A stretch of DNA of 25,906 bases from IMG/VR virus record IMGVR_UViG_2740892258_000020; one strand, written 5' to 3'. How positions within the stretch are numbered: the stretch's first letter is position 1; every line of letters begins with the position of its first letter. The DNA comes from a virus. Taxonomy: Duplodnaviria > Heunggongvirae > Uroviricota > Caudoviricetes. The notes beneath the pieces were generated by a model. It made no database searches. It saw nothing but the letters and a program-made list of their open reading frames with translations, and was not told the origin of the DNA. Positions 1 to 13,572 of the stretch are shown one piece after another. A program made the position numbers and the translations under genes.

Positions 1-774
1 TCAATCTGTCAATGCAACACCCCTTTCAACTGCAAGCCCCCAGGTAAAGCAGTCATGCCCGCGCCCCGCCAGCGCCCCGGATTTGTACGCCTCAAGCGTT
101 ACATCAGCCGGGATGGTGGTTTCGCCGTATTCTTTGCGCAGCAGTTCGATAGATTCAGCGATCAGCGCGTCGGTCAGGTCGCGTGAGCAAAACAGGTATT
201 TCACGCCACCATAAACACGGTGGAAGCCCGTAATGTTGTATTCGTAAATGTCCTCCATTGAGTTAACGCTACCTTCCTCAAACTTGTCTGTAATCGCTTC
301 TACAGCCTCTTTGGTTGGGCCATCCGTCCACGAAACATAGAGCGCGTTATAGTCACGCATACGGACAGAAAACTTCACTCCGGGGAAATGCTTTTTCAGC
401 AGAATACGGATGTTTTTAGCGGCTAGCTTGGTGGTGTTGCTTTCGGTGGCCGTGGTCAGCAATCCGGCGTTTTCCGGGTCAGCGCTGGCGCGTTCGTTCG
501 CCAGCTGGCGGGCATCTTCTTTCGCCTGGTGTCTCGCTTCGCGCTGGTCGGTCACACTCTGCACAACCTGACGGCGGGCGCGGAGTTCATCGAGTGGAAG
601 GGTCTTATCGATCACCTGGTAAAAGCGCAGGGAAGTTTCCAGCAGCGGGGCGCAGGTTGGGGCATTCAGGCCGAGGATGGTATAGCTGATTTTGCCGTCA
701 GCCAGATTAACCGCGCTTACTACATACTCGTTTTTAAAAGAGGTGAGGCACTGGCCGACAGTTAAAGTAGTCAT
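1..774 (-). CDS. hypothetical protein (257 aa) in GC-rich flank outside the prophage structural module
   Basis: ORF 1..813 on minus strand; start most likely the internal ATG at 774..772, which has AGGAGT 7 nt upstream (the ORF-track start at 813 is a GTG). Stop at 1..3. No domain recognised. Confidence 0.55.
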
Positions 775-857
775 GATGTTACTCCTGATAATCGCCGCTT
801 TGGGCTGTGTCACCGGGCGGCGGTATTGCCTCCCGATGAATTAAGTATCGCTCTTTT

Positions 858-1018
858 TGCCCTCAAAATTATGGGCGTTGGCCTCAACACGATTTTACGT
901 CACTTAAAAAACTCAGGCCGCAGCCGGTAACCTCGCGCATACAGCCGGGCAGTGACGTCATCGTCTGCGCGGAAATGGACGAACAGTGGGGCTATGTCGG
1001 GGCTAAATCGCGCCAGCG
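858..1018 (+). mobile_element. IS1 internal fragment (insB-coding portion), about 160 bp, lacking both inverted repeats
   Basis: Near-identical to the IS1 sequence as I recall it (ATTATGGGCGTTGGCCTCAACACGATTTTACGTCACTTAAAAAACTCAGGCCGCAG...GGCTAAATCGCGCCAGCG); one frame reads [23 protein letters not shown] as in InsB. Similarity stops abruptly on both sides. Confidence 0.7.
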
Positions 1019-1218
1019 AGCGTCTGCCCGTTCCATACCGGCATACAGCGCATCGCCGAGCAGAAATCACTGAGAACATCCCACGCCTTACGCTGTGTGG
1101 TCAGCCAGGCATTACAGGTGATGCGCGGCTCCGTGCCACCAAAGCCATCCGGCACCGACTGGTCGCAATACTGGCCGATGACATAATTCCTGCTTCAAAG
1201 ATTGAGAAGGAGACGAGA

Positions 1219-1617
1219 ATGTACGGAACATGCGAAACGCTATGCCGGGAGCTGGCAGCAAAGTATCCGGGAGACGCGCCGCTGATGCTGGTTATCTGGT
1301 CCCCGGAAGAAATTCAGGCCCTCGCTGACGGAATGGATATTTCCCTGTCCGATCATGAAATCAGGACTGTCCTGGCGCGCCTGGAGGACATCCCGGAAGA
1401 CCAGCGGACTGAATCCGGTATTTCTTCCGGTGCGGCGATGGAGATCATCAATAACGTGAGAGAAAACCGCCAGGTGACCGTCCCTGCTGAACTGCTGGCG
1501 TCCCTGATTCAGACCGCCGAACAGGCACTGTGGAAACGTGAGTGGGCCGCCCGTGTGTACCACGGTGTATCTGTAATTTTAAATAACTCTCCCTGGATAA
1601 AATCTTCAGAAGCATAA
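1219..1617 (+). CDS. hypothetical protein (132 aa); C-terminus probably altered by the rearrangement junction near 1567
   Basis: ATG at 1219 preceded by GAAGGAGACGAGA (GGAG-type RBS). The ORF-track start at 952 lies inside the IS1 fragment in a different frame from insB. GC-rich coding sequence switches to AT-rich after ~1567. Confidence 0.5.
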   Translation: MYGTCETLCRELAAKYPGDAPLMLVIWSPEEIQALADGMDISLSDHEIRTVLARLEDIPEDQRTESGISSGAAMEIINNVRENRQVTVPAELLASLIQTAEQALWKREWAARVYHGVSVILNNSPWIKSSEA

Positions 1618-2408
1618 AAAAGAGGCTGGCCCGGTATTCTCTCAAATAAAAAACGAGCATTTTTAAATCGACTGACATCCGGAAGAGTTGATACTTTAAA
1701 AGTAAGCCCTAATCCGTCAATTTTATAACCTGGAGATGAGGCTTCAAGGCACGCGCTTATTGCAGTGGAATCGTCATTTATACCATCACCAACAGCTCCA
1801 AAATCTTTGGGGCTAATAGCATCACGCATTTTATCCTGGAACGTTCGGTACACAGCCCCAGAACCATACTGAATAAACCAACCAAAACCACCAACAACCC
1901 CGGAGATTGCAGCATCGACATAATTACGCATTGAGCGATTATTTACAGCGTCCTGCTCAAATGATGGATCTGCAAGGTTAGAAATTTTGTTTTGCTTTGC
2001 ATCGTAATATTTTGCAAGCAAAGATGGTTTCATCAATGCACGTCTGAACCACCCAAAACATTGCTGGATCAGCATCGTCAGGTAGTCAAAGGCATCTTCA
2101 TGCACTTCGGGGAAAAATTTTCCCTGATTGCGAAGGTCTGTCTCCTGCACTACATCAAGCACACGATCTATCGTAATTCGCCATCCAGTAGCAAGCGGAG
2201 ACGGAAGAACCACAGAACCGCCACTATAAGTGCCCGCCCCAGTTACCGTATAACCGGTATCCAGAACCAATTCTGTTACGTTTCCGTTCAGGTCAGACAC
2301 CTGAACAACCAGGTCTGATTTTCTGAAAACTCGAAAAGTATACGGAAACGATGTCGTAACGCCGTTACCGGTGTATTCGTTGTGGTCAACTTCGGTTGAG
2401 ACCGTCAT
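1509..2408 (-). pseudogene. truncated tail fiber/tailspike: N-terminal virion-attachment domain plus the start of a pectate-lyase-like beta-helix (depolymerase) domain; genuine sequence ends near residue 280 (~1567)
   Basis: N-terminus MTVSTEVDHNEYTGNGVTTSFPYTF...DLVVQV is the recurring podovirus tailspike N-terminal pattern; PKDFGAVGDGINDDSTAI is a typical start of a right-handed beta-helix depolymerase domain. Only ~90 residues of that domain are present before the ORF runs into unrelated GC-rich sequence. GGAG RBS 8 nt upstream of the ATG. Confidence 0.6.
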
Positions 2409-2885: not shown

Positions 2886-3392
2886 TTAACAGTCGTAAAA
2901 TTCCGGGTCCCACAAACTTGCATCGCGCGGCATGGATTCTAAATTTTTCAGCCGCAAAATTCTGTCACACTCGACAAGAAGTTTTTGTTTTTGTTCGTCA
3001 ATTTCTACTTTTTTGTGTGCTGGCTCATCCCAGTAATCCAGAAGAAACGCATGTCGCTCAGACGTTACAAGATAAATCACATACACATCACTGGTTGGTA
3101 TTTTTTTATGCTTGTTGGTGGTCTTGTCTTTCTTCCCGGATGCCCAGTTTTTCCAGCATTGTTCCGTACCGCTCTCACCAAACTTGTCAGTATAGTTTCC
3201 GATGTTTACGTGAACGTGGCGTATGTGATATTCCAGCATCTCTTTCGGTGGATCCCGAAACAGAGTGTCCTTTCCGAAATCCTTATGATGACCGTAGCGC
3301 CAGTGATCTATGAACGCGTTTTTGATAGGTATTAGCTCAGGGTCCTTCCCAAAAATTCCAGGGTGAACCAACCCCTGGAATTTATTCAGCAT
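2886..3392 (-). CDS. YafO-family toxin-like protein (168 aa), probable mRNA-interferase type toxin
   Basis: Motifs resembling E. coli YafO as I recall it: PGIFGKD (YafO PDIFGRD), HVHVNIGNYTDKF (YafO IHLANENNPF), VYVIYLVTSERHAFLLDYWDEPAHKK (YafO HLVYCQGAFDEQAWLLIAILKPEPHK), plus a Lys-rich insertion. Start at ATG 3392..3390 with AGGAG 10 nt upstream; it overlaps the stop of the upstream gene by 11 nt. The ORF-track start at 3497 would give an implausible Arg/Ser/Cys-rich N-terminus. Confidence 0.5.
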   Translation of the reverse strand: MLNKFQGLVHPGIFGKDPELIPIKNAFIDHWRYGHHKDFGKDTLFRDPPKEMLEYHIRHVHVNIGNYTDKFGESGTEQCWKNWASGKKDKTTNKHKKIPTSDVYVIYLVTSERHAFLLDYWDEPAHKKVEIDEQKQKLLVECDRILRLKNLESMPRDASLWDPEFYDC

Positions 3393-3801
3393 CGTCGTAG
3401 AGCTCCTGAGCCATATCTTCGGCAGTGCGTGCAAACATCCTGCGCGAGATTGCATGAGATTTCTCGACGGACATCTTTGGGACCTCATGCATAACATTTT
3501 TGGGAGTTGTGTAATAGCCTATTACAATTTTCACACCTGACTTATGATTAATATCAGCATAATATACTTCTTGTTCAGACGTTTCACGACGAACATAATC
3601 TGCCAGTTTTCCACATTTAAATTCCCCTCCCTGATGTTTTAAAATCTCCTCAACTGCACTATTTTCAGTGAAATACCGAATAAGAAATTTCTGTCCAGAC
3701 TCTTCAGCATGAGGTATAACAGTATTATTGGAAGCCCGAACAATGGCCTTACTCAATATTTCATGGTCTTTATTTTTTTCTGATTTCCTCAAATGCTGCA
3801 T
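3382..3801 (-). CDS. unknown 139-aa protein translationally coupled to the toxin-like gene; candidate antitoxin or sensor partner
   Basis: ATG at 3801 with GAGAG upstream (ORF-track start at 3837 is TTG). Its stop lies inside the first codons of the downstream gene. Does not resemble YafN/Phd-type or RelB/RHH antitoxins that I can recognise. AT-rich. Confidence 0.6.
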   Translation of the reverse strand: MQHLRKSEKNKDHEILSKAIVRASNNTVIPHAEESGQKFLIRYFTENSAVEEILKHQGGEFKCGKLADYVRRETSEQEVYYADINHKSGVKIVIGYYTTPKNVMHEVPKMSVEKSHAISRRMFARTAEDMAQELYDDAE

Positions 3802-3933
3802 TACTGTAGCTCTCTTCGTGTTCACGGGCACCCCCAACTACCTCTAGGGTAAACATTCTATCGAAAGTATACGCATACTGGCAAAAAAATAGGCAGGTAT
3901 TTTCTGAAATGGGATCAATCAAACCACATAGGG

Positions 3934-5082: not shown

Positions 5083-5715
5083 ATGAAAACAAATACAACA
5101 AGAAAAGCGATGCCATACATTATCCCAGAAGCAGATTTCGACAGAAAACTGAACATGTCTGAGAAGAACACTAGTCACACCGAAAGCTACTTAGCGAAAG
5201 GTGTGGTTGATTTCGTTCTTCCGGGATTCACAACACCTTATGGTTATCGCCTTGTAAAATCTTGTAATGGCGATCATTACAGAATGATTACTACCAGCGA
5301 TACTCCAGAAACGGTGTATGCGGTTAAGTTAATCTTTCGGGAAGATATCGTCGAAGCTAAAAGAACATGTACGCAGATCATGGTATGGCGTACGCCTAAT
5401 GTTATTCATGACCGTGCTGTTCATGGTTTGCCTCAGATTTTTTTTCAGTTCTTCCTAGAGCAATATGCGATCGTTGTATCTGATGAGCAACAAACAATCG
5501 ATGGGAGAAGATTCTGGGAAAGAATGATTTCTTGGGCTATAAACACCCCGGGATATAATGTATACGTTTCAGATGGCTCTGAAGAAGATAGACCTCTTAG
5601 CTTCATGACATCATGGGATGATTTCTATAGCCAGTGGGCTGATTTCTGTTGGGGCAGTGATAAAGATGTGCATACCCACAGACTACTGGTTATAAGCAAA
5701 GATAAACTGCATTAA
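5083..5715 (+). CDS. hypothetical cargo protein (210 aa), monocistronic
   Basis: ATG with GGGAGGA RBS 5 nt upstream; followed by a strong intrinsic terminator; AT-rich; no recognisable motif. Confidence 0.7.
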   Translation: MKTNTTRKAMPYIIPEADFDRKLNMSEKNTSHTESYLAKGVVDFVLPGFTTPYGYRLVKSCNGDHYRMITTSDTPETVYAVKLIFREDIVEAKRTCTQIMVWRTPNVIHDRAVHGLPQIFFQFFLEQYAIVVSDEQQTIDGRRFWERMISWAINTPGYNVYVSDGSEEDRPLSFMTSWDDFYSQWADFCWGSDKDVHTHRLLVISKDKLH

Positions 5716-5719
5716 TAGA

Positions 5720-5742
5720 AGCCCGCAGCGCGGGCTTTTTTG
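5720..5742 (+). terminator. rho-independent terminator AGCCCGC-AGC-GCGGGCT followed by TTTTTT
   Basis: Perfect 7-bp GC-rich stem and six T immediately after the stop of the 210-aa gene. Confidence 0.75.
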
Positions 5743-5813
5743 TGGACGAAACAAAAGTCAGTGCTACACTCATTGACGCCACATTGAGGTGGCTTATAGA
5801 TGGAAATTTCACA

Positions 5814-5975
5814 ATGAAAAAAGCATTTGCTGCACTGTTCGTTTTGTTGTCTCTGGTAGCTTCAACTCAGGCCTTTGCCGGTCGTTGTCAGCACGACAGC
5901 GATACTGCTGCTGACGGCTCCCGCTGCGGTGGGCGTTCTGCGGATTCCCGCCCGGGTGGCGGTGGCATTCGTTAA
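5814..5975 (+). CDS. possible small secreted peptide (53 aa): Sec-type signal peptide then a Gly/Asp/Arg-rich 31-aa mature region with two Cys
   Basis: MKKAFAALFVLLSLVASTQAFA|GRCQHDSDTAADGSRCGGRSADSRPGGGGIR. Upstream TTGACG-16-TATAGA promoter-like hexamers; weak or no SD. Bracketed by terminators at 5720..5742 and 5981..5998. Confidence 0.35.
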   Translation: MKKAFAALFVLLSLVASTQAFAGRCQHDSDTAADGSRCGGRSADSRPGGGGIR

Positions 5976-5980
5976 AAACA

Positions 5981-5998
5981 AGGCCGCGAAAGCGGCCT
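5981..5998. terminator. bidirectional hairpin AGGCCGC-GAAA-GCGGCCT; T-run on the minus-strand side terminates the 283-aa gene
   Basis: 7-bp stem with GAAA loop; on the minus strand followed by TGTTTTTAAC. Confidence 0.65.
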
Positions 5999-6004
5999 GT
6001 TTGA

Positions 6005-6856
6005 TCACTGTGCAGTTTTCGCTGATCGATTTTCAGCTCTAAATTCAAGAACCGTTTCAATATTTCTTTCCTTCAGCATATCAATAACATTTTTATTCAT
6101 TTGACTATCACTGGTTAATAACTGGTAAACGTTGCTTCTCTCTTTATCAGAGTTTTCTTTAACAGCTGCTTTGCATGCCAAATGCTTATTGAAATTTTCT
6201 ACATCGCTAGTACAGGAATTTACGGCTGCTGATGAAATATCAGACGCTGAAGAAACACCATCATCCAAACGTTTTATAGCATTTTCTATACATGAGTTAA
6301 GGGAATAAACGACAACTGAGCGATACCCTTCAGACGCACACCATTCTAAATTTCTTGAAGGATCGAGTGGTTTTACTTCGCTGGATTGAATTAACTTGTC
6401 AAAAACTGACTTATATTCAATCTGTTTTTTATCTATAGCCCATACTTCAGTAGCTGATTTATAATTCCCCGTATGCCTATTAACATCAAATCCATGTTTT
6501 ATAAGCAAATCTGCCCATGAAAGATTTATTGATTCATTGTTATGAGGCCATTTTCCTGTCAGAACCGCCCCCATAGACCCCATATATCCGCCATATGATG
6601 GTATAGCACCATGGCTCAGTAACTTCTCAGCAACCACAGGGCAATTAATTACATAAGAGGCGTAAAGCCCATTCCATAAAGCCCCTCTATAGTAATCGCC
6701 ACGATTAGGTTCTTTTAAGTCGATAGCCTTTGATAATTGTTCACACGTTTTGCATGCATCAAAGTTATCCTTATTGCATTGCAATGAACTGGCAGCTGTA
6801 GGATTTACAGAGACTATTGAAAGCACTATGCCAAAAAACAAATTTATTTTTTTCAT
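6005..6856 (-). CDS. secreted/periplasmic cargo protein (283 aa) with N-terminal signal peptide, many Cys, and possible ankyrin-like repeat motifs
   Basis: MKKINLFFGIVLSIVSVNPTAASS signal-like N-terminus; motifs PVVAEKLLSHGAIP and ADLLIKHGFDVNRHTG resemble ankyrin repeat consensus (tentative). AT-rich; ATG 1 nt after the stop of the upstream ejection-protein gene. Confidence 0.7.
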   Translation of the reverse strand: MKKINLFFGIVLSIVSVNPTAASSLQCNKDNFDACKTCEQLSKAIDLKEPNRGDYYRGALWNGLYASYVINCPVVAEKLLSHGAIPSYGGYMGSMGAVLTGKWPHNNESINLSWADLLIKHGFDVNRHTGNYKSATEVWAIDKKQIEYKSVFDKLIQSSEVKPLDPSRNLEWCASEGYRSVVVYSLNSCIENAIKRLDDGVSSASDISSAAVNSCTSDVENFNKHLACKAAVKENSDKERSNVYQLLTSDSQMNKNVIDMLKERNIETVLEFRAENRSAKTAQ

Positions 6857-6857
6857 C

Positions 6858-9800
6858 CTATTTCATCTGCTCTTCAACTTTATTTAGTAACGGTGATATT
6901 GCCCACAGGTTCTGAAAAGGTAGCATTTTACGGACCGCGTGGGTTTGCTGGCTGTCAAATTCTCCGTTAAGTACACCATTCGCAACCGTCGCGGCATCAC
7001 CGCCAAGATCAAAGGTAGGACCAAGTAAAGCACCAATAGCATTACGACTCTGAAACCTTGATACCGGAGGCGCACCAAACATCGCGCCAAGACCAAACCT
7101 ACCGCCGCTTATGTTCTCAACGGTATTCAGCGGCTCAGAGAGCCAGCCAAGCATTCCGCCCCGGTCGATCCCCTCTTTCACAAGGTTATTCCAGCTGTAG
7201 TCAATATCGCGACCGCTTAACTTCTGTTTCATCATATAGACCATTGAGCCAAGCGCAATCGTGCCAAGCGCACCAAGATAGAATGCAGCATCGCCCTGCT
7301 GGATACCAGATACCAGCACCCTGTTATGCTGTGCGAAGATAAACGTTTTGAACTGCGTGATCATCTTCCAGCCTTCTTTACTAAAAAACAGCGGTGTATC
7401 ACCTACGCCAGGCGTTACAATCACTGAGTCTACATCTTTCAGCACTGCAGACTGGAAAATCTCTCTAGCGAAACGGTCATCCCACAGATGACTATGCCCG
7501 GTTAACAGCCCGTCCATATCCTCTCCGTGCTTCCCGAATTGCTCCCCGATTCGGCGCAGAACATCTTCATTGATGCCGACCTGTGCCATCTTCCGCATTT
7601 CACTTTTGGAGAGCGTGCCACCAGCAGAAACTTGGCGAGCCGCGTCAAGTATCCTCGACTGCACTATCATCCCGGACCATGATTTAAGTGCGCTGTTCCA
7701 CTGATTCATCAGCGTCCAGTTACCGAATTTCTGCGTCATCCAGTTCAGGCCTCGCTCAGCGGCGCTTCTCCGGCTATATGGGTCAGTAAGATCCGCTATA
7801 GCCTTTGTACGCGTAGACAGGACATAATCAAGCCCAACGGCCATTTCTCGCAAATCCCTGGTTGCAATTTTCACTGAGTCCATATTTTTAAGCATGCTTA
7901 CCATTGGTCCGAGAGATTTTCTCAGGCCATGCTGCATCATCGGTCGCATCAGATCAGTTGCAGCGGAGACAGTCATTCCACCAAGCAAACGGAGGAAGTT
8001 AATATTCCTAGCAACTCGCCCGGCACGAACAAAGAAACTGCGTGGATCTTGAGGTGCACCGTAAGTACCAAGCAGTCGATCACGCATAGCCGTAATATCC
8101 CTAATATCAGCCTCCCGTTGCTTCTCAAGAACTGCACGTCGTTTAGGCGTTTTAGCCTCTTTTATTAGCCGGGTATATTCCTCACTAACCTGACGGATTT
8201 GCTCCCCCATATCTTTACGGCCAAACTGCGCAGTCAGCTCAATTTCTGGTGCCACCTGCCGGAGATAACTTTCCATGATGTAGTTAACATCTGATTCAAG
8301 AAAATCTTCTATACGCTCATCAGGAATAAGCAGCGTTCTGCTTTTAGTGAAACCAGCCCGACCAACGAGTCTCTCTGGGATAATATCGGCTGGTACAAGC
8401 CCGGAAGGTGCACCTATTATTTTATTCACGATCTCGTCAGCAGCGTCCTCTGCTTCCTCTCGGGATAGAGGCTCCATCTGCTTCAGTGCTCGTTCGCGGC
8501 TTGCATTCAGCCTTGTGGTTGAATTTGCCCGTTTTTGCAGTCGGCGAAGCTCAGAACGATATTTCCGTGGATTATCCAGCAACTCCATATGGCGCTGATA
8601 GACAGGAAGCTCACTCTTTGCCTGCGCTATATCATCAAGGCGTGTTTTAAGGTCAGAGCTTTCTTTCATCATTCTTGCCTGAAGTTTTTCTGATGAAGTC
8701 TCGGCCAACTCTTTTTCTATTCTTGTAAGACGCGCCTGTGTGTCAGTCTCCTGAGATATAAGCTTATTTCGTTTATCCAGTTCTTCCATGAGTAGAATTT
8801 TTTTACCAGACCATTTCTCCGCTTCAGCGATTTCACTAGCGAGAGCATCAGCGCGCGGTGCCGATTCCTCTGCAGTTTTTAGCAATGAATTTATCCTTTC
8901 AATTCGCTGACCTGCCTTGTCAGCACCTTTGGCACTAATCCCTTGTATCCAGTTGGCAATTCGCCCTCTGAATTCAGTGCGGTCGGAAAGTATCTTATCG
9001 AACTTATAAATGCGGGGAAGATAACTTTTCGCCGTCACGACATCGATATCCTCAGGAAGGATCCCCAGTTCCTGCATACGGGCTTTTGTGGTCTCGAAAA
9101 TGGGGCGGATTCTGGCAGCTGCTTGTGAAACCTCAGGAATATCACTCTGATCACCACGGCGCATAGCCATGCCAACAGCTTCATTGAAATCAATAAAGTT
9201 CATCCTCTTCACGCCGCGGGCGCTAACAGATTTGCTGTACTGCTGGTAAGCATCACGAGTGGCTTCCATCTGCTTATAAAGCATGGCGTCGTATTGCTTA
9301 ATCTTAGTCTCGACTGCCGTAAACGTAGCCAACCCCTCATCATTTTTGGCGAAGAAATAGTTATTTTCGGCAAGCTGCTGGTTAATCTGACGGGAGACAA
9401 GAGATGGTGATTGCGCCAAGCGGCCAGCAGGAGTGACACTCAACGTTTTGTTAGCAAGTCCAAGTCCAGCGAGCTGTTCCTGATCGAGTGTGGTATTGAA
9501 AACCTGAGCTGCACCAATGCTTTGAGGAGAATCCATACCTCGCAAATGATTACCTACTGAGTTAACCACTGCCTCGCGCGCGCCAGGTCCAGCAAGTAGC
9601 TGTGCACCAGCACCAAGGATCCCACCAACGAGAGCATCAACAACAACGTTCGATACGCTCTCCATCGGTGAGCGAGCTTCCTGAGTGGCCTGTAATGCGG
9701 CCTCTGAAGCAACACTGCCAGCAGCATTCGCCAGGGCAAAACGCCCGGCTGTTTCTGCAATACGACCGCCACGAACGACAGCGCCGAACGGAATAAACAT

Positions 9801-10247
9801 AGAAATCGCATTGAATGGATCTGCTAATCTCATTGCTACAGAAGAGACTGTACCAGCAAATCCCAAGCCTGAATTGTATTCCATGTCAGCTCTCTGCTGA
9901 TCGATTCGATGTTTAATTGCCATTGTTTCTTCAGGCGAACCGGAGTTGATAAACGAATCTGCAAAATCTTCATAGCCTTTAATATCTGCTGCATCGTTAT
10001 CAAATGGGTTATATCCTTCAACCCTGTCAAACTGACTGAAAGGAGCACTGGCAATAAAGCTACCCAGCGTGTTATCTATACGAAATGCTGCTTGTCTAGA
10101 CCTTTGAACGCGTTGATCACTGGTAAATGGGTTCACAGCAGAAAGCAAAGAAGGTGTTTCCATATAGAAATTACTGTCATCAGGTGCTGCTATTTGCTGA
10201 ATATCCTCGCCAAGCAACTCTTTAGGATCCTGTTCATATATCGGCAT
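6858..10247 (-). CDS. large internal virion / DNA ejection protein (1129 aa), T7 gp16-position analogue
   Basis: Last and largest gene of the tube/core gene run; long coiled-coil-like central region (KTAEESAPRADALASEIAEAEK...); start overlaps the upstream gene stop. Assignment by position and size. Confidence 0.55.
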   Translation of the reverse strand: MPIYEQDPKELLGEDIQQIAAPDDSNFYMETPSLLSAVNPFTSDQRVQRSRQAAFRIDNTLGSFIASAPFSQFDRVEGYNPFDNDAADIKGYEDFADSFINSGSPEETMAIKHRIDQQRADMEYNSGLGFAGTVSSVAMRLADPFNAISMFIPFGAVVRGGRIAETAGRFALANAAGSVASEAALQATQEARSPMESVSNVVVDALVGGILGAGAQLLAGPGAREAVVNSVGNHLRGMDSPQSIGAAQVFNTTLDQEQLAGLGLANKTLSVTPAGRLAQSPSLVSRQINQQLAENNYFFAKNDEGLATFTAVETKIKQYDAMLYKQMEATRDAYQQYSKSVSARGVKRMNFIDFNEAVGMAMRRGDQSDIPEVSQAAARIRPIFETTKARMQELGILPEDIDVVTAKSYLPRIYKFDKILSDRTEFRGRIANWIQGISAKGADKAGQRIERINSLLKTAEESAPRADALASEIAEAEKWSGKKILLMEELDKRNKLISQETDTQARLTRIEKELAETSSEKLQARMMKESSDLKTRLDDIAQAKSELPVYQRHMELLDNPRKYRSELRRLQKRANSTTRLNASRERALKQMEPLSREEAEDAADEIVNKIIGAPSGLVPADIIPERLVGRAGFTKSRTLLIPDERIEDFLESDVNYIMESYLRQVAPEIELTAQFGRKDMGEQIRQVSEEYTRLIKEAKTPKRRAVLEKQREADIRDITAMRDRLLGTYGAPQDPRSFFVRAGRVARNINFLRLLGGMTVSAATDLMRPMMQHGLRKSLGPMVSMLKNMDSVKIATRDLREMAVGLDYVLSTRTKAIADLTDPYSRRSAAERGLNWMTQKFGNWTLMNQWNSALKSWSGMIVQSRILDAARQVSAGGTLSKSEMRKMAQVGINEDVLRRIGEQFGKHGEDMDGLLTGHSHLWDDRFAREIFQSAVLKDVDSVIVTPGVGDTPLFFSKEGWKMITQFKTFIFAQHNRVLVSGIQQGDAAFYLGALGTIALGSMVYMMKQKLSGRDIDYSWNNLVKEGIDRGGMLGWLSEPLNTVENISGGRFGLGAMFGAPPVSRFQSRNAIGALLGPTFDLGGDAATVANGVLNGEFDSQQTHAVRKMLPFQNLWAISPLLNKVEEQMK

Positions 10248-12994
10248 TATTTGCCCCCTGCGTATATATTGCTCGGAAGGTAATTGGCTGAACCATAACC
10301 GAATGGTTTGGTCAGATCTGGAGGAGTATATCCATCTTTATTGCTGAACTGCGGCAGCGGATTGCCTTCTCTCCGCACTCTAGCCTCATCAACACGCTGT
10401 TGCTGGAACTGAATGGTTTGCCTGTACATTGGAGATGTCAGCTGATCCGGCTTGAAACGAACAGGGAGACCATTTTCTCCAATATAATTTCTCGGTTCTA
10501 TCGCTCCGTTTGCGTCAGGCTGTAAAACCATAACAGCATAACTCCTATCCCTTGCCGTAAGGCCATCAGAAACAAGTATTAAGTCCGTATCACTGCGAGG
10601 ACCGCCAAAGGATTTTGATTTAAGCTCGCGTTTTTCCTGCTCCCACTGCCCCTGTATCCAGTTACCAGCACCATTATTTACTCCGTACAATGCCTCAGGT
10701 GCATACTTCATAACCTCTGCTTTGCCATTAACTGTAGAAACTCCCCAGGTGGTTCTGATCATGGCATTGGTCATTTTCTCAGCCTGTTCTGCATCGCCAC
10801 CTGTCTGTACAAAGTTAGCATCGTAAATTGTCTGGTAATCTCGCTGATAGGCCGCATTTGATTTTCCTGGATCGGTAATATCCGGAGACCACGAACCAAA
10901 GGAAGTCAGACTGCTGGCGTTATTTTGTGCAGCAGTTGCCCTCGCCGCGACATATTTTTTGTCTCGCATGGCAGTGGAAAGCATCTGTTTCATTCGGTCA
11001 TCCTGTTGGAACACCTGGCTGTAAGCCATATCAACAGCCTTATCCTCCGGCACGCCAGCGCGGGAATAATCGTAAACCTTGCCGTAAAATGCCATCGTAC
11101 TTTTATCAAGTGTTGCCGCTGCCGCCGGATTATTATCAAATAACTGACCGTAGAATTTTGCCATCGGGACAACCAGCGCAGGATCTCTTGATGTTGCTCC
11201 ACTGTTAAGCATTGTTTTAACCTGAGTTGGTATCATGCCGCTTTTAGTTGTGACGGTGACCAGTGTATTGATGCTCTGCGGATCAGATATGGAAAACGAA
11301 GGCGCGATATCCTGCGCGAAATAACGGTCTACCGCTGCCTGATTGTTTTTGTCGTTCGGGTCCAGCGGGAAGTTATTTTGCATTGAAGACACGAACCTGT
11401 TTCTTCCCTGCTGAATCTCCCACTCCCTATCCATCTCTTTAAATTTGGCCTGCATTTTCTCCCAGCGTTGCTGGTTAGCTGCAAATCCAGGAGCGTTTGG
11501 ATCCTGTGGACGTAAACGTTCAAGAATGTCTTGTCGTCCTTCTGGAGTGAGGTCTTTAGCGGCACCAATGACACCTCCATATTGTATCTGCGCCTGCATA
11601 TCCTTCCACTTCATAGCGCCAATGCGCGGACCATTGGCCCGGATAAAATCGTCCTCAGAAGGTAACTTCTCAGGTTTCAATCCTTCATCAAGGGCTGAAT
11701 ATGCATCTTTAACTACGGTGCTAAGCTGGTCCGCATACTGCTGGCGGTACTGATTTCTCAGCTCATTAGCCTGCCTCAATGCCTGTATTTGCATTTGAGG
11801 GCTCATAGCGTCAAATGCCGCATTGCCCGTATAACGCTTAGGTGAATCAAGGTTAGTTAGACCAAGGGATGCCGAGATACCAGTTTCAAGCTGTTCGGTG
11901 CTATAAGGCATACTGCCATTTTCGTGTTTAATAATCCCAGCACATAAAGCAGCTAGTGTCTTTGGGTTAGAGATATCAAGCTGATCATTCTCCCCAACAC
12001 CAAGCTCACTACACAATGCCCTAATATAAGCATCAGTATTATTACCATCACTAGCCGGAGCATAGCGATTAACAATCTCGCTAACGGTGTCATAGCCTTG
12101 ACGCTGGTAAGACAACATATTTTTACCCAACGCGCGGATTCCATGCTCAGGGGTAGCAAACGTTGCAAAACGTCCATCGCTACCGATCTGACCTTCCCAC
12201 GGGTTAGATTTGCTCGCTTCAATATTACCAGGGTTATTATTACGTAAACCACGAGCATCCAATGAATTACCATGTGATATTGCACGACTCACACCATCAA
12301 GATCCCCTGGCTCTCCATTAACCTGAAGAAACTCGTTGTATTTTTGAGCGATATTTCCTATCCATGCTTGCTGCCCCATTTGTTCCTTGAGCTGAGTTTT
12401 CTGCTGAACACGCCACCCATCAGGAAGCCCATGTGCATCAGCGTATTGATCAATAGATTCAAATCGCTGCTTGGCTAAATCGACAAATGCTTGGTTATCG
12501 CTATATAGCCCCGCAGACTGAGTGACAGCCAATGCATTTCCTGACAAATACGTTTGATCTTGGAATTGCTGAAACTGCCCAACTTCATATCGACGTGCCT
12601 GATTGTAATAAGACTGCATAGACTGCTGGAGTTGAAAGGATAATTTATTCCTTTCCTCACTTTCAGGAATTGAGCCTAATAATGCCTGAGCCCTTTCCTG
12701 CATATTTTTCATAACAGCGTCACTCTGACCAAGAGCGTTTTTACCCTGTTTAGAAATCAGCCCATTTTCAGGGTTGTTAATCTGGTCATCTGCAAATTGG
12801 TTAAATTGCAGTAACGCCTCCTGAGCCATAGCAACATTCGCTTTCTGCCTGGCTTCACCATATGCCACCGCATACTGATCTGCGACATTCGCCAGCACCT
12901 GACCTGCTTGAGGAACATCGAAGGTCTGAAAACCACCGGTTTGCACACCACGACTTTGCACCTGGCGTCCGGATGTAGTAGGAACAACTGGCAT
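10247..12994 (-). CDS. internal virion protein (915 aa), T7 gp15-position analogue; contains a conserved-looking block (LRNNNPGNIEASKSNPWEGQ...FATFATPEHGIRALGKN) that may be a cell-wall-interacting domain
   Basis: Position and size in the ejection-protein run; Gln/Asn-rich. Domain call is tentative recollection only. Confidence 0.5.
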   Translation of the reverse strand: MPVVPTTSGRQVQSRGVQTGGFQTFDVPQAGQVLANVADQYAVAYGEARQKANVAMAQEALLQFNQFADDQINNPENGLISKQGKNALGQSDAVMKNMQERAQALLGSIPESEERNKLSFQLQQSMQSYYNQARRYEVGQFQQFQDQTYLSGNALAVTQSAGLYSDNQAFVDLAKQRFESIDQYADAHGLPDGWRVQQKTQLKEQMGQQAWIGNIAQKYNEFLQVNGEPGDLDGVSRAISHGNSLDARGLRNNNPGNIEASKSNPWEGQIGSDGRFATFATPEHGIRALGKNMLSYQRQGYDTVSEIVNRYAPASDGNNTDAYIRALCSELGVGENDQLDISNPKTLAALCAGIIKHENGSMPYSTEQLETGISASLGLTNLDSPKRYTGNAAFDAMSPQMQIQALRQANELRNQYRQQYADQLSTVVKDAYSALDEGLKPEKLPSEDDFIRANGPRIGAMKWKDMQAQIQYGGVIGAAKDLTPEGRQDILERLRPQDPNAPGFAANQQRWEKMQAKFKEMDREWEIQQGRNRFVSSMQNNFPLDPNDKNNQAAVDRYFAQDIAPSFSISDPQSINTLVTVTTKSGMIPTQVKTMLNSGATSRDPALVVPMAKFYGQLFDNNPAAAATLDKSTMAFYGKVYDYSRAGVPEDKAVDMAYSQVFQQDDRMKQMLSTAMRDKKYVAARATAAQNNASSLTSFGSWSPDITDPGKSNAAYQRDYQTIYDANFVQTGGDAEQAEKMTNAMIRTTWGVSTVNGKAEVMKYAPEALYGVNNGAGNWIQGQWEQEKRELKSKSFGGPRSDTDLILVSDGLTARDRSYAVMVLQPDANGAIEPRNYIGENGLPVRFKPDQLTSPMYRQTIQFQQQRVDEARVRREGNPLPQFSNKDGYTPPDLTKPFGYGSANYLPSNIYAGGK

Positions 12995-13572
12995 CAGTAA
13001 CCTCCTATTTTGAATCGGGAGTCAGAATTCATAAAACCTGAGTTAGATAACATTGGCGTCCCACCACTAGATGTACTTCCTTTAGAGAACGGACTCCACG
13101 TTCCGCCGCCCAACTTATATGCACCGTATGCTTTTAGTGGTGCTGTTAACAAAGTGCTGGTCATCGATGATTTAGCAGCCGACTGAGCAGCAGCCCCCTG
13201 TGCCTGAGCATTCATTCCCTGAACCTGATACCCATATGCCTCACGCTGAGCATTATTCACTGTCGTTAACGCATCAAGAGTGCCGAACTGAGCATTATCC
13301 GCAAAAACGTCAAGAGCTGTTCCGCTACTTAATTCCGCACCGGTAGCCCCCATAGTGGCCGCCGCAGTGCCTGAGCGTTGACGCATTTCACGACGACGCT
13401 GATCTGCTTCAATATTCCCACGATTGATTGAATCCTGTGCCTGAGCTTCAGCAATTTCAGCATTCCGATCAGCTATGGCTGACTGGTATTTTGCCTGCTT
13501 GCTCTGGCTGTACATTGACGCGGCTGTGGATGCCACTGTGACGGCAACCAAAGCGATGGCTGGGTTACACAT
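12994..13572 (-). CDS. internal virion protein (192 aa) with hydrophobic N-terminal segment, T7 gp14-position analogue
   Basis: MCNPAIALVAVTVASTAASMY hydrophobic N-terminus, Ala/Gln/Gly-rich body, size close to T7 gp14 (196 aa), correct position. Confidence 0.45.
   Translation of the reverse strand: MCNPAIALVAVTVASTAASMYSQSKQAKYQSAIADRNAEIAEAQAQDSINRGNIEADQRRREMRQRSGTAAATMGATGAELSSGTALDVFADNAQFGTLDALTTVNNAQREAYGYQVQGMNAQAQGAAAQSAAKSSMTSTLLTAPLKAYGAYKLGGGTWSPFSKGSTSSGGTPMLSNSGFMNSDSRFKIGGY

Follow-up and report, generated by a model that had tools for sequence, protein, structure and literature searches.

In bacteriophage T4, the periplasmic protein Spackle (gp61.3) inhibits the gp5 tail lysozyme (PMC7677548). 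Bd3460 of Bdellovibrio bacteriovorus is an ankyrin-repeat protein for self-protection against peptidoglycan DD-endopeptidases (PDB ID: 5CEA; PMC4686830), and Tli of Enterobacter cloacae is an ankyrin-repeat lipoprotein that serves as an immunity protein of a type VI secretion system (T6SS) and neutralises a phospholipase (10.1101/2023.03.28.534661). Here, we analyse two genes from a 25,906-nucleotide stretch of viral DNA (Caudoviricetes; IMG/VR record IMGVR_UViG_2740892258_000020), the whole of which we refer to as the window: a gene for a 283-residue protein that ends an operon of ejection-protein genes and, convergent to it, a gene for a 53-residue pre-peptide. Our central proposal, to which we assign a probability of roughly 0.5 on the strength of gene order and predicted protein features, is that the 283-residue protein acts as a periplasmic inhibitor or immunity protein for the muramidase domain of an ejection protein. 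Measured against the described systems, it is best explained as Spackle-like in its proposed function and Bd3460-like in its fold.

The proposed model shares with Spackle a phage-encoded protein that is exported to the periplasm and neutralises the peptidoglycan hydrolase of an incoming virion, with superinfection exclusion as the result. The two proteins do not, however, show any sequence or fold homology to each other; the target of Spackle is an enzyme of the T4 lysozyme type, whereas the target proposed here is a PHA02564 domain; Spackle is encoded by an early gene of a virulent myovirus, whereas the 283-residue gene ends the late operon of a temperate podovirus; and inhibition has been demonstrated for Spackle but is proposed for the 283-residue protein. 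Bd3460 was found as a structural match to the model of the ankyrin-like domain described below (9% identity in the structural alignment) and is likewise an ankyrin-type protein that blocks a cell-wall hydrolase, blocking being the activity that we propose in the phage case. Its target is an endopeptidase rather than a glycosidase-type muramidase, and it is a chromosomal protein of a predator, without the C-terminal helical domain and the 8-Cys pattern of the phage-borne protein. T6SS effector-immunity pairs are resembled by stand-alone homologues of the ankyrin-like domain, which form two-gene modules of an exported ankyrin-like protein and a signal-less, envelope-attacking enzyme. Here, too, there are differences: Tli is a lipoprotein directed against a phospholipase, whereas the 283-residue family has no lipobox and the partner is a muramidase, and the phage copy of the ankyrin-like domain is fused to a second domain. 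The proposed target, found both within the ejection protein and in the stand-alone neighbours, belongs to the family of the Enc34 ORF39 endolysin (PHA02564; PMC8943055); in Enc34 the domain constitutes an endolysin with a C-terminal membrane anchor, whereas in the window it lies inside a virion internal protein. Finally, the ankyphages of sponge symbionts also encode an ankyrin protein with a signal peptide (10.1101/608950), but these proteins are reported to act on eukaryotic immune cells, whereas the linkage of the 283-residue gene points to a bacterial cell-wall enzyme and the Pfam Ank models are unmatched by its product.

The ankyrin-like protein and its muramidase link

An earlier sequence-only reading of the window had described open reading frames (ORFs) for both products, and both are present where it placed them. 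The features on which the argument for the 283-residue protein rests are:

6005..6856, minus strand: gene of the 283-residue protein, predicted to be an exported two-domain protein (WP_000723561.1 in avian pathogenic Escherichia coli (APEC) O18; PHROG 6118, unknown function)
6788..6856, minus strand: signal-peptide-like leader MKKINLFFGIVLSIVSVNPTAAS, codons 1–23 (by inspection; cleavage expected at about residues 22–24; no lipobox)
6362..6787, minus strand: ankyrin-like domain, residues 24–165 (invariant Cys C27, C35, C38 and C72; invariant motifs ALWNGLY and KWPH..N)
6008..6361, minus strand: helical C-terminal domain, residues 166–283 (invariant Cys C173, C189, C215 and C228; motif LDDGVSxASDI)
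11861..12256, minus strand: Enc34-type (PHA02564) muramidase domain, approximately residues 243–385 of the 915-residue ejection protein (tblastn, 44–49% identity; PHROG 1044, 873 and 7182)

The N-terminus had been called signal-peptide-like, and inspection agrees: MKK-INLFFGIVLSIVSV-NPTAAS shows the n/h/c layout of a Sec leader, with a basic n-region, an h-region of 10–15 residues and the small residues at -3/-1 expected for signal peptidase I. Within the family alignment, variation and indels are greatest in this region, yet it is hydrophobic across the homologues, and residues 1–23 are unstructured in the model (predicted local distance difference test (pLDDT) <50). The 8 Cys residues are invariant in 14 homologues, down to 38% identity. 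From these features, the 283-residue protein is predicted to be exported by the Sec pathway and to be disulfide-bonded, with up to four disulfides. A lipoprotein reading was rejected for both the 283-residue and the 53-residue product because neither has a lipobox (L-[AS]-[GA]-C where the leader ends), the first Cys being preceded by SLQ or GR (GQ, AK or SK in homologues).

When modelled alone with 36 sequences, the N-terminal domain reached a pLDDT of 94.4 and a predicted template modelling score (pTM) of 0.89, and the model consists of the stacked helix-turn-helix repeats with hairpin loops that characterise the ankyrin fold. The C-terminal domain was modelled as a confident helical bundle (pLDDT 90–95 in the full-length model), with the LDDGVSxASDI motif falling between two Cys; no library match was found for it. 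The ankyrin-like motifs of the sequence-only reading are real, given the fold of the model and the alignment of LYASYVINCPVVAEKLLSHGAIPS and ...SWADLLIKHGFDVN with consensus repeats, but they are divergent and pass no threshold of an Ank hidden Markov model. Pfam returned no family, Ank included, for the 283-residue protein at E<=1 and none for the stand-alone homologues P0080 and P0082 at E<=0.01; a sequence profile search of the PDB gave only insignificant coiled-coil and designed ankyrin-repeat protein (DARPin) matches (DARPins E 1.3–2.2), hhalign against a consensus DARPin gave an E of 0.007 with a probability of 5.5%, and Foldseek against viral predicted structures gave nothing at E<=0.001. 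The family profile does match bona fide Ank proteins (P0118, E 5.5e-9), albeit only as the sum of stretches of 5–9 bits. Because the Pfam Ank models fail and the profile reaches Ank proteins through summed weak repeats, the N-terminal domain is ankyrin-like but stands outside the Pfam ankyrin families. Searches of Pfam, NCBIfam and PADLOC with the whole protein gave no significant match, PHROGs placed it only in a family of unknown function, and a literature search on the protein accessions gave no match. An exhaustive profile search did reveal that the two halves of the protein also occur as separate secreted proteins, of 155–190 residues for the N-terminal half and of 110–160 residues, sometimes as a tandem duplicate, for the C-terminal half; the examined stand-alone homologues of both domains start with hydrophobic leaders.

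The link to a muramidase comes from the stand-alone N-terminal relatives, whose genomic contexts were first picked by the amount of sequence on the contig only and later widened by a metagenome scan. In each of the first five contexts, the ankyrin-like gene has an immediate same-strand neighbour whose product lacks a Pfam match and a signal peptide and shares the motif RNNNPGNI...F.TF.TPEHGIRAL, which PHROG profiles assign to a domain of large virion proteins labelled 'endolysin' or 'tail injection transglycosylase'. In the wider sample, scored with a muramidase-domain profile and leaving aside several longer fusion proteins, the stand-alone ankyrin-like gene adjoins a PHA02564 gene in 7 of approximately 13 distinct bacterial (non-phage) contexts (loci L091/92, L093-95, L096/97/104, L098/99/167, L100/101/153, L159 and L165), so that the universal pairing suggested by the initial five out of five was dropped. 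The partners in these pairs are proteins of 175–225 residues encoded on the same strand and without a signal peptide, and the gap between the two genes ranges from a 4-nt overlap to 21 nt where both gene ends were called. With seven paired against about six unpaired contexts, and with no PHA02564 domain in a control of 297 kb of unrelated loci, the association is strong but not universal. It has the genetic form of a periplasmic immunity or inhibitor gene, namely linkage to a hydrolase without an export signal; in the phage, the gene shares an operon with the ejection protein that bears the domain. Since the ankyrin-like protein is predicted to be exported and the partner muramidase is signal-less, the two would meet only after delivery of the enzyme into the periplasm, which is the topology of an effector-immunity pair.

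Two further observations on the partners may be recorded here. Several stand-alone PHA02564 proteins (L091 7501..8061; L098 5482..6030; L159 3402..3932; L094 6439..6963) have His-rich tails, e.g. HHHHHPVHHHHPTHHH. At the metagenomic loci L096 (4924..7480) and L104 (2469..4972), the muramidase domain is fused to DUF3892 and stands in a row of four genes, encoding a 202-residue unknown protein, an AbiEii-type toxin, the muramidase-DUF3892 fusion and the ankyrin-like protein.

In PDB sequence searches, the muramidase domain of the window matched 7q47_A ('Endolysin', E 2.5e-16) and 9vvp_L, a 1295-residue phage protein (E 4e-36); a literature search on 9VVP gave no match. We take PDB ID 7Q47 to be the Enc34 ORF39 endolysin, given the agreement of the Glu in the HENG motif with Glu131. 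This catalytic Glu is kept in the 915-residue protein of the window and in the partner proteins. In vitro, the Enc34 enzyme shows muralytic activity; its fold is lysozyme-like and its catalytic residue is Glu131 (PMC8943055). The domain is present in 787 phage records, in many of them within internal virion proteins of lytic podophages, and the records include phages named Kayfunavirus as well as Salmonella and Escherichia podophages whose internal virion protein contains it. An inhibitor of broad range would thus find numerous potential targets. A literature search found no inhibitor or immunity protein for the Enc34-type (PHA02564) muramidase family. Co-occurrence extends to relatives of the phage protein: Serratia and Morganella prophages with a homologue in the conserved slot described below also carry a PHA02564 domain, as does the ejection protein of a Morganella prophage that has a stand-alone C-terminal domain of 156 residues in this slot, and a second stand-alone C-terminal-domain member lies on a phage contig with a diversity-generating retroelement that also encodes a PHA02564 protein.

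Operon position, proposed action and alternatives

The minus-strand late operon of the window encodes internal virion (ejection) proteins, followed by the 283-residue protein and a terminator:

12994..13572, minus-strand operon: gene of a 192-residue protein of the T7 gp14 family (Pfam T7_gp14 PF24072; PHROG 418)
10247..12994, minus strand: gene of the 915-residue ejection protein (PHROG 1044 and 992), two genes upstream of the 283-residue gene
6858..10247, minus strand: gene of the 1129-residue last ejection/internal virion protein (PHROG 342, 'internal virion protein with endolysin domain'), directly upstream of the 283-residue gene
5976..6002, both strands: bidirectional intrinsic terminator between the convergent genes (-17.5 and -16.1 kcal/mol; z-scores -5.1 and -4.1)

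The 283-residue gene adjoins the last ejection gene as had been noted: a single base (6857) separates its ATG (6856..6854) from the TAG (6860..6858) of the 1129-residue gene. The terminator, which is also annotated in phage phiV10, closes the operon 6 nt past the stop codon of the 283-residue gene. The gene is indeed AT-rich, with a G+C fraction of 0.367 (0.282 at third codon positions) against 0.483 (0.441) in the upstream 1129-residue gene, and this contrast between homologue and ejection gene recurs in Morganella (0.354 against 0.521) and Serratia (0.404 against 0.535). The homologues, which form 22 clusters at 90% identity, are confined to prophages of Enterobacterales (E. coli, Klebsiella, Serratia, Morganella, Providencia); a relative is encoded at 31 of 31 viral-contig loci retrieved with the family alignment, and an intact gene is present in 106 of 5426 complete E. 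coli genomes. A Serratia prophage has a homologue of 61% identity in the same slot, 11 nt after an ejection gene of about 1130 codons, and a Morganella prophage has one of 40% identity, 31 nt after the corresponding gene; the last ejection protein itself is 55% identical between E. coli and Morganella. With the slot kept over such divergence, the 283-residue gene is an old resident and not a recent insertion. The earlier description of a gene appended to the ejection operon thus holds in that the gene is the last of the operon, but not in the sense of a recent addition.

The gene is nevertheless optional, and the slot after the last ejection gene is filled by other cargo in related phages: a 46-residue membrane protein with two transmembrane helices in phiV10, a 98-residue multi-pass membrane protein in BUCT711 and in Serratia, and a 204-residue protein in ST512-KPC3phi13.3. 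In another epsilon15-like prophage of Morganella (L102 6001..7182, plus strand), the slot holds the secreted 156-residue protein consisting of the C-terminal domain only, followed by a secreted 227-residue protein of an unknown family.

In the mechanism that we propose, the 283-residue protein would be co-produced with the ejection proteins, its gene being the final one ahead of the operon terminator. The Sec pathway would export the protein, and up to four disulfides would stabilise it in the periplasm. Its N-terminal ankyrin-like domain, from an uncharacterised secreted family that is paired genetically with signal-less PHA02564 hydrolases, would bind and block the muramidase on its entry into the periplasm, whether the enzyme arrives as the ejection-protein domain of an incoming podophage or as a toxin injected by a rival bacterium. 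For the phage, the outcome could be superinfection exclusion, protection against lysis from without or protection against injected toxins. The C-terminal helical domain would add another secreted module, likewise associated with this slot of the genome.

Several observations weigh against this proposal. A PHA02564 neighbour is missing from about six distinct stand-alone contexts in which the flanking sequence is long enough (L133/154, L147/148, L151/152, L155, L161 and L164); the unpaired copies may be immunity genes left as orphans, or other partners may exist for the family. The 283-residue gene and the muramidase-bearing gene of the phage are two genes apart and not adjacent, and at least one epsilon15-like phage, phiv142-3, has the muramidase domain without a 283-residue gene. 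The Morganella prophage that carries the full-length homologue has an apparent endolysin that is likewise of the PHA02564 type, and broad inhibition would get in the way of this phage's own lysis, barring a specificity such as Spackle is said to have for gp5. Lastly, as a promoter scan upstream of the 283-residue gene found none, the gene may be expressed only late, which would limit the protection of lysogens. The endolysin gene of this Morganella prophage (L052 12247..12723, plus strand; 158 codons) follows two holin genes, and the enzyme family is thus used in the ejection protein and apparently also as the endolysin.

A different reading of the same linkage is that the 283-residue protein is a periplasmic accessory factor, involved in lysis timing, in receptor or capsule masking or in aiding the phage's own ejection proteins, and that its tie to the muramidase reflects cooperation (activation or scaffolding) rather than inhibition. 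The varied envelope-directed cargo of the slot in phiV10, BUCT711, Serratia and the Morganella prophage would fit such a role, as would the absence of a muramidase neighbour from half of the stand-alone homologues, and there is a precedent in the ankyrin-repeat protein Tli, which both neutralises and activates its effector (10.1101/2023.03.28.534661). We nevertheless consider it somewhat unlikely: the combination of signal-less muramidases with signal-bearing ankyrin-like proteins is the classic effector-immunity topology, and library searches gave no sequence sign of a holin, spanin or receptor-binding function.

The sequence-only reading had left the choice between host interaction and a role in the envelope. 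Envelope targeting is the best-supported of these, while interaction with a eukaryotic host becomes less likely given the link to the muramidase domain of the ejection protein. Such an interaction would have the protein exported to the periplasm, freed at phage lysis in the manner of Shiga toxin or of the secreted ankyphage proteins, and acting on animal cells as a modulator, and a case for it can be made: a signal peptide is combined with an ankyrin fold, the hosts are animal-associated opportunists (APEC and extraintestinal pathogenic E. coli, Klebsiella, Serratia, Morganella, Providencia), placement in the late operon would tie release to lysis, and the phage protein ANKp is reported to aid immune evasion in a eukaryote (10.1101/608950). 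We regard this as improbable, however, since the closest ankyrin-like relatives are small secreted proteins of environmental bacteria (Paraburkholderia, soil and marine metagenomes) paired with a cell-wall hydrolase, the repeats are too divergent for eukaryote-like Ank models, and E. coli has no known route past the periplasm for the protein except lysis. As for the inhibitor proposal, the specific muramidase link on which it builds was not foreseen by the sequence-only reading, whose observations were confirmed and whose interpretation is supported in part: the two genes are separate, the 283-residue gene is an old resident and the Ank models are not matched.

The convergent gene of a Cys-loop peptide

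The 53-residue gene and the elements around it are as follows:

5814..5975, plus strand: gene of the 53-residue pre-peptide, with a 22-residue signal peptide (5814..5879) and a 31-residue mature part, GRCQHDSDTAADGSRCGGRSADSRPGGGGIR (WP_000708858.1; PHROG 14503)
5765..5806, plus strand: candidate expression signals of this gene from an alignment of 11 genera (-10-like TACACT at 5765..5770; Shine-Dalgarno-like GGAAA at 5802..5806)
5717..5745, plus strand: intrinsic terminator of the 210-residue gene and left border of the 53-residue cassette (hairpin and T-tract, -15.3 kcal/mol)

By inspection, the product has the Sec-type leader that had been attributed to it, MKK/AFAALFVLLSLVA/STQAFA with a cleavage-like AFA-G end, and two invariant Cys; it is encoded convergent to the 283-residue gene and bracketed by the two terminator hairpins at 5717..5745 and 5976..6002. 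The promoter-like hexamers of the earlier description fared less well: a consensus scan found none, and other genera do not conserve the TTGACG...TATAGA pair that had been picked out by eye. A semi-conserved -10-like TACACT/TACAAT does occur approximately 45 nt upstream of the ATG in several genera.

The possibility of a false ORF, which the sequence-only reading had allowed for, was not borne out. Among homologues from 11 genera, the differences at codon positions 1, 2 and 3 are 0.24, 0.15 and 0.55, and with the nine codons by which the homologues had been retrieved left out, the proportion of nonsynonymous differences (pN) is 0.155 against a saturated synonymous proportion (pS) of 0.75, as expected under purifying selection; the ratio of the corresponding rates (dN/dS) is 0.06 in the mature part and 0.17 in the leader. 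Across 26 proteins, the leader drifts in sequence while its hydrophobicity is kept, and the mature part is nearly invariant. The ATG and the Shine-Dalgarno-like GGA are conserved in the 11 genera, whereas a longer frame of 77 residues is not. We conclude that the 53-residue ORF is a genuine gene, the product of which is predicted to be a Sec-exported peptide of 31 residues with one probable disulfide loop. That it is open by chance, with the block 5719..6000 acting instead as a terminator pair, a small RNA or some other regulatory or RNA element, is very improbable: the ORF is very short, lies between two hairpins, has no Pfam or NCBIfam family and showed no sigma-70 promoter in the scan, but its third codon position is 2–4 times more variable than the others, start codon, leader character and mature sequence are conserved as described, and the peptide motif recurs in distant phyla amid unrelated surrounding sequence.

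The peptide has 57 homologue clusters and matches PHROG 14503 over residues 1–53 (E 2.3e-40), although no Pfam or NCBIfam family was matched. NCBI names it 'transmembrane anchored protein' (e.g. gp43 of TL-2011b), on which a literature search gave no match; this is a name from annotation, whereas the hydrophobic stretch looks cleavable (AFA-G) and the conserved part is the mature peptide. Readings as an Excalibur-like calcium-binding, an Ivy-like (CKPHDC) or a His-Xaa-Ser peptide were found to be unsupported; the best sign of the latter was a 12.9-bit match to HxsA3, and the His is not conserved outside Enterobacterales.

The sequence-only reading had treated the two genes together, as additions to one operon, but they do not form one unit. 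The cassette from terminator to terminator (5719..6000, with borders set by how far the E. coli matches reach) occurs in 499 of 5426 E. coli genomes against 106 for the 283-residue gene (approximately five times as many), with differing flanks and often without the 283-residue gene; its neighbours are ant/arc in TL-2011b and other genes in Klebsiella phages. Because of its own terminators, its wider spread in E. coli and its varied neighbours, the 53-residue cassette is an independent moron.

The mature peptide (5880..5972, plus strand) contains a Cys-loop motif of approximately 25 residues, C-x5-[DQ]-x-A-[AS]-DGSRCGGR-[AS]-A-x2-R-P-G-G (loci L014-L051), that recurs outside Enterobacterales at the extreme C-terminus of small secreted proteins and lipoproteins. 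Alphaproteobacteria and Cyanobacteria are among the groups concerned, and the motif was found in Mesorhizobium, Rhizobium, Agrobacterium, Devosia, Methylobacterium, Paraburkholderia, a Polyangiaceae bin and several Cyanobacteria (Nostoc, Anabaena and Dolichospermum); in Mesorhizobium, it ends proteins of 90–115 residues whose leader ends in a lipobox-like LLSGC. A search of family models returned none that covers the motif, the distant members had no Pfam match even at E<=10, and the search for a conserved neighbour of the motif gene outside Enterobacterales gave only local synteny among Mesorhizobium species.

Prophage setting and significance

The window belongs to the epsilon15-like (Uetakevirus-type) prophages; over positions 5700–6900 it is 100% identical to the chromosome of E. 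coli APEC O18, and the best phage match to the window is Escherichia phage EC.W1-9. Past the terminator, convergent to the 283-residue gene, the plus strand carries a Bro-N gene, the 210-residue gene and the 53-residue gene, and further on lie the genes of a YafO-type toxin and an endosialidase tailspike. The 1129-residue ejection protein bears the RefSeq label 'DUF919 family protein', a name that is probably misleading: the Pfam DUF919 match is marginal, at 23.4 bits for a cut-off of 21, and extends over 46 residues in a stretch that is charged and probably helical. The 210-residue gene (5083..5715, plus strand), directly upstream of the 53-residue cassette, belongs to a family of unknown function (PHROG 1349) and had no match in Pfam, NCBIfam or PADLOC; in related phages YafO, DUF2335 or DUF4760 genes stand in for it, and its position is therefore a second variable cargo slot. 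Between the tailspike and the Bro-N gene, a variable region of the window contains the YafO-family toxin gene and, overlapping it, an upstream ORF of approximately 150 codons (2886..3837, minus strand); in TL-2011b, this region also has a YafO gene, but at another spot. The tailspike gene (1..2408, minus strand) encodes an endosialidase, annotated in APEC O18 as 'endosialidase catalytic beta-propeller domain-containing protein'. As endosialidases degrade the polysialic-acid K1 capsule, the prophage is probably K1-specific.

A broader scenario can be put forward tentatively. The ankyrin-like domain and the PHA02564 muramidase may form an unrecognised effector-immunity family that is used in contact-dependent warfare between bacteria, a use proposed because one of the pairs (L098) lies <=5 kb from genes for Hcp and a ClpV-like ATPase of the T6SS. 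Temperate epsilon15-like phages may then have acquired the immunity half and joined it to another secreted module, as a Spackle-like shield against podophages with this muramidase in their ejection proteins, and the 53-residue gene may encode an ancient exported Cys-loop mini-peptide of enterobacterial prophages, rhizobia and cyanobacteria. We know of no PHA02564 protein for which T6SS dependence has been demonstrated.

The 53-residue gene, present in 9% of complete E. coli genomes, represents an unstudied family of predicted exported peptides, and the conservation of its core motif across phyla is unusual for a phage moron. In case of the 283-residue protein, the proposal would, if true, provide a proteinaceous inhibitor for the Enc34-type muramidase family and a phage-borne exclusion that acts in the periplasm against the ejection proteins of podophages. 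Only few superinfection-exclusion proteins are understood mechanistically. Such an exclusion would also bear on phage therapy, as 2% of complete E. coli genomes carry the gene and prophages of Klebsiella, Serratia, Morganella and Providencia have homologues of it; the relevant phages would be lytic podophages, several of which are annotated with the target domain in an internal virion protein. By the same reasoning, the signal-less PHA02564 proteins encoded next to the stand-alone ankyrin-like genes would be candidate antibacterial toxins.

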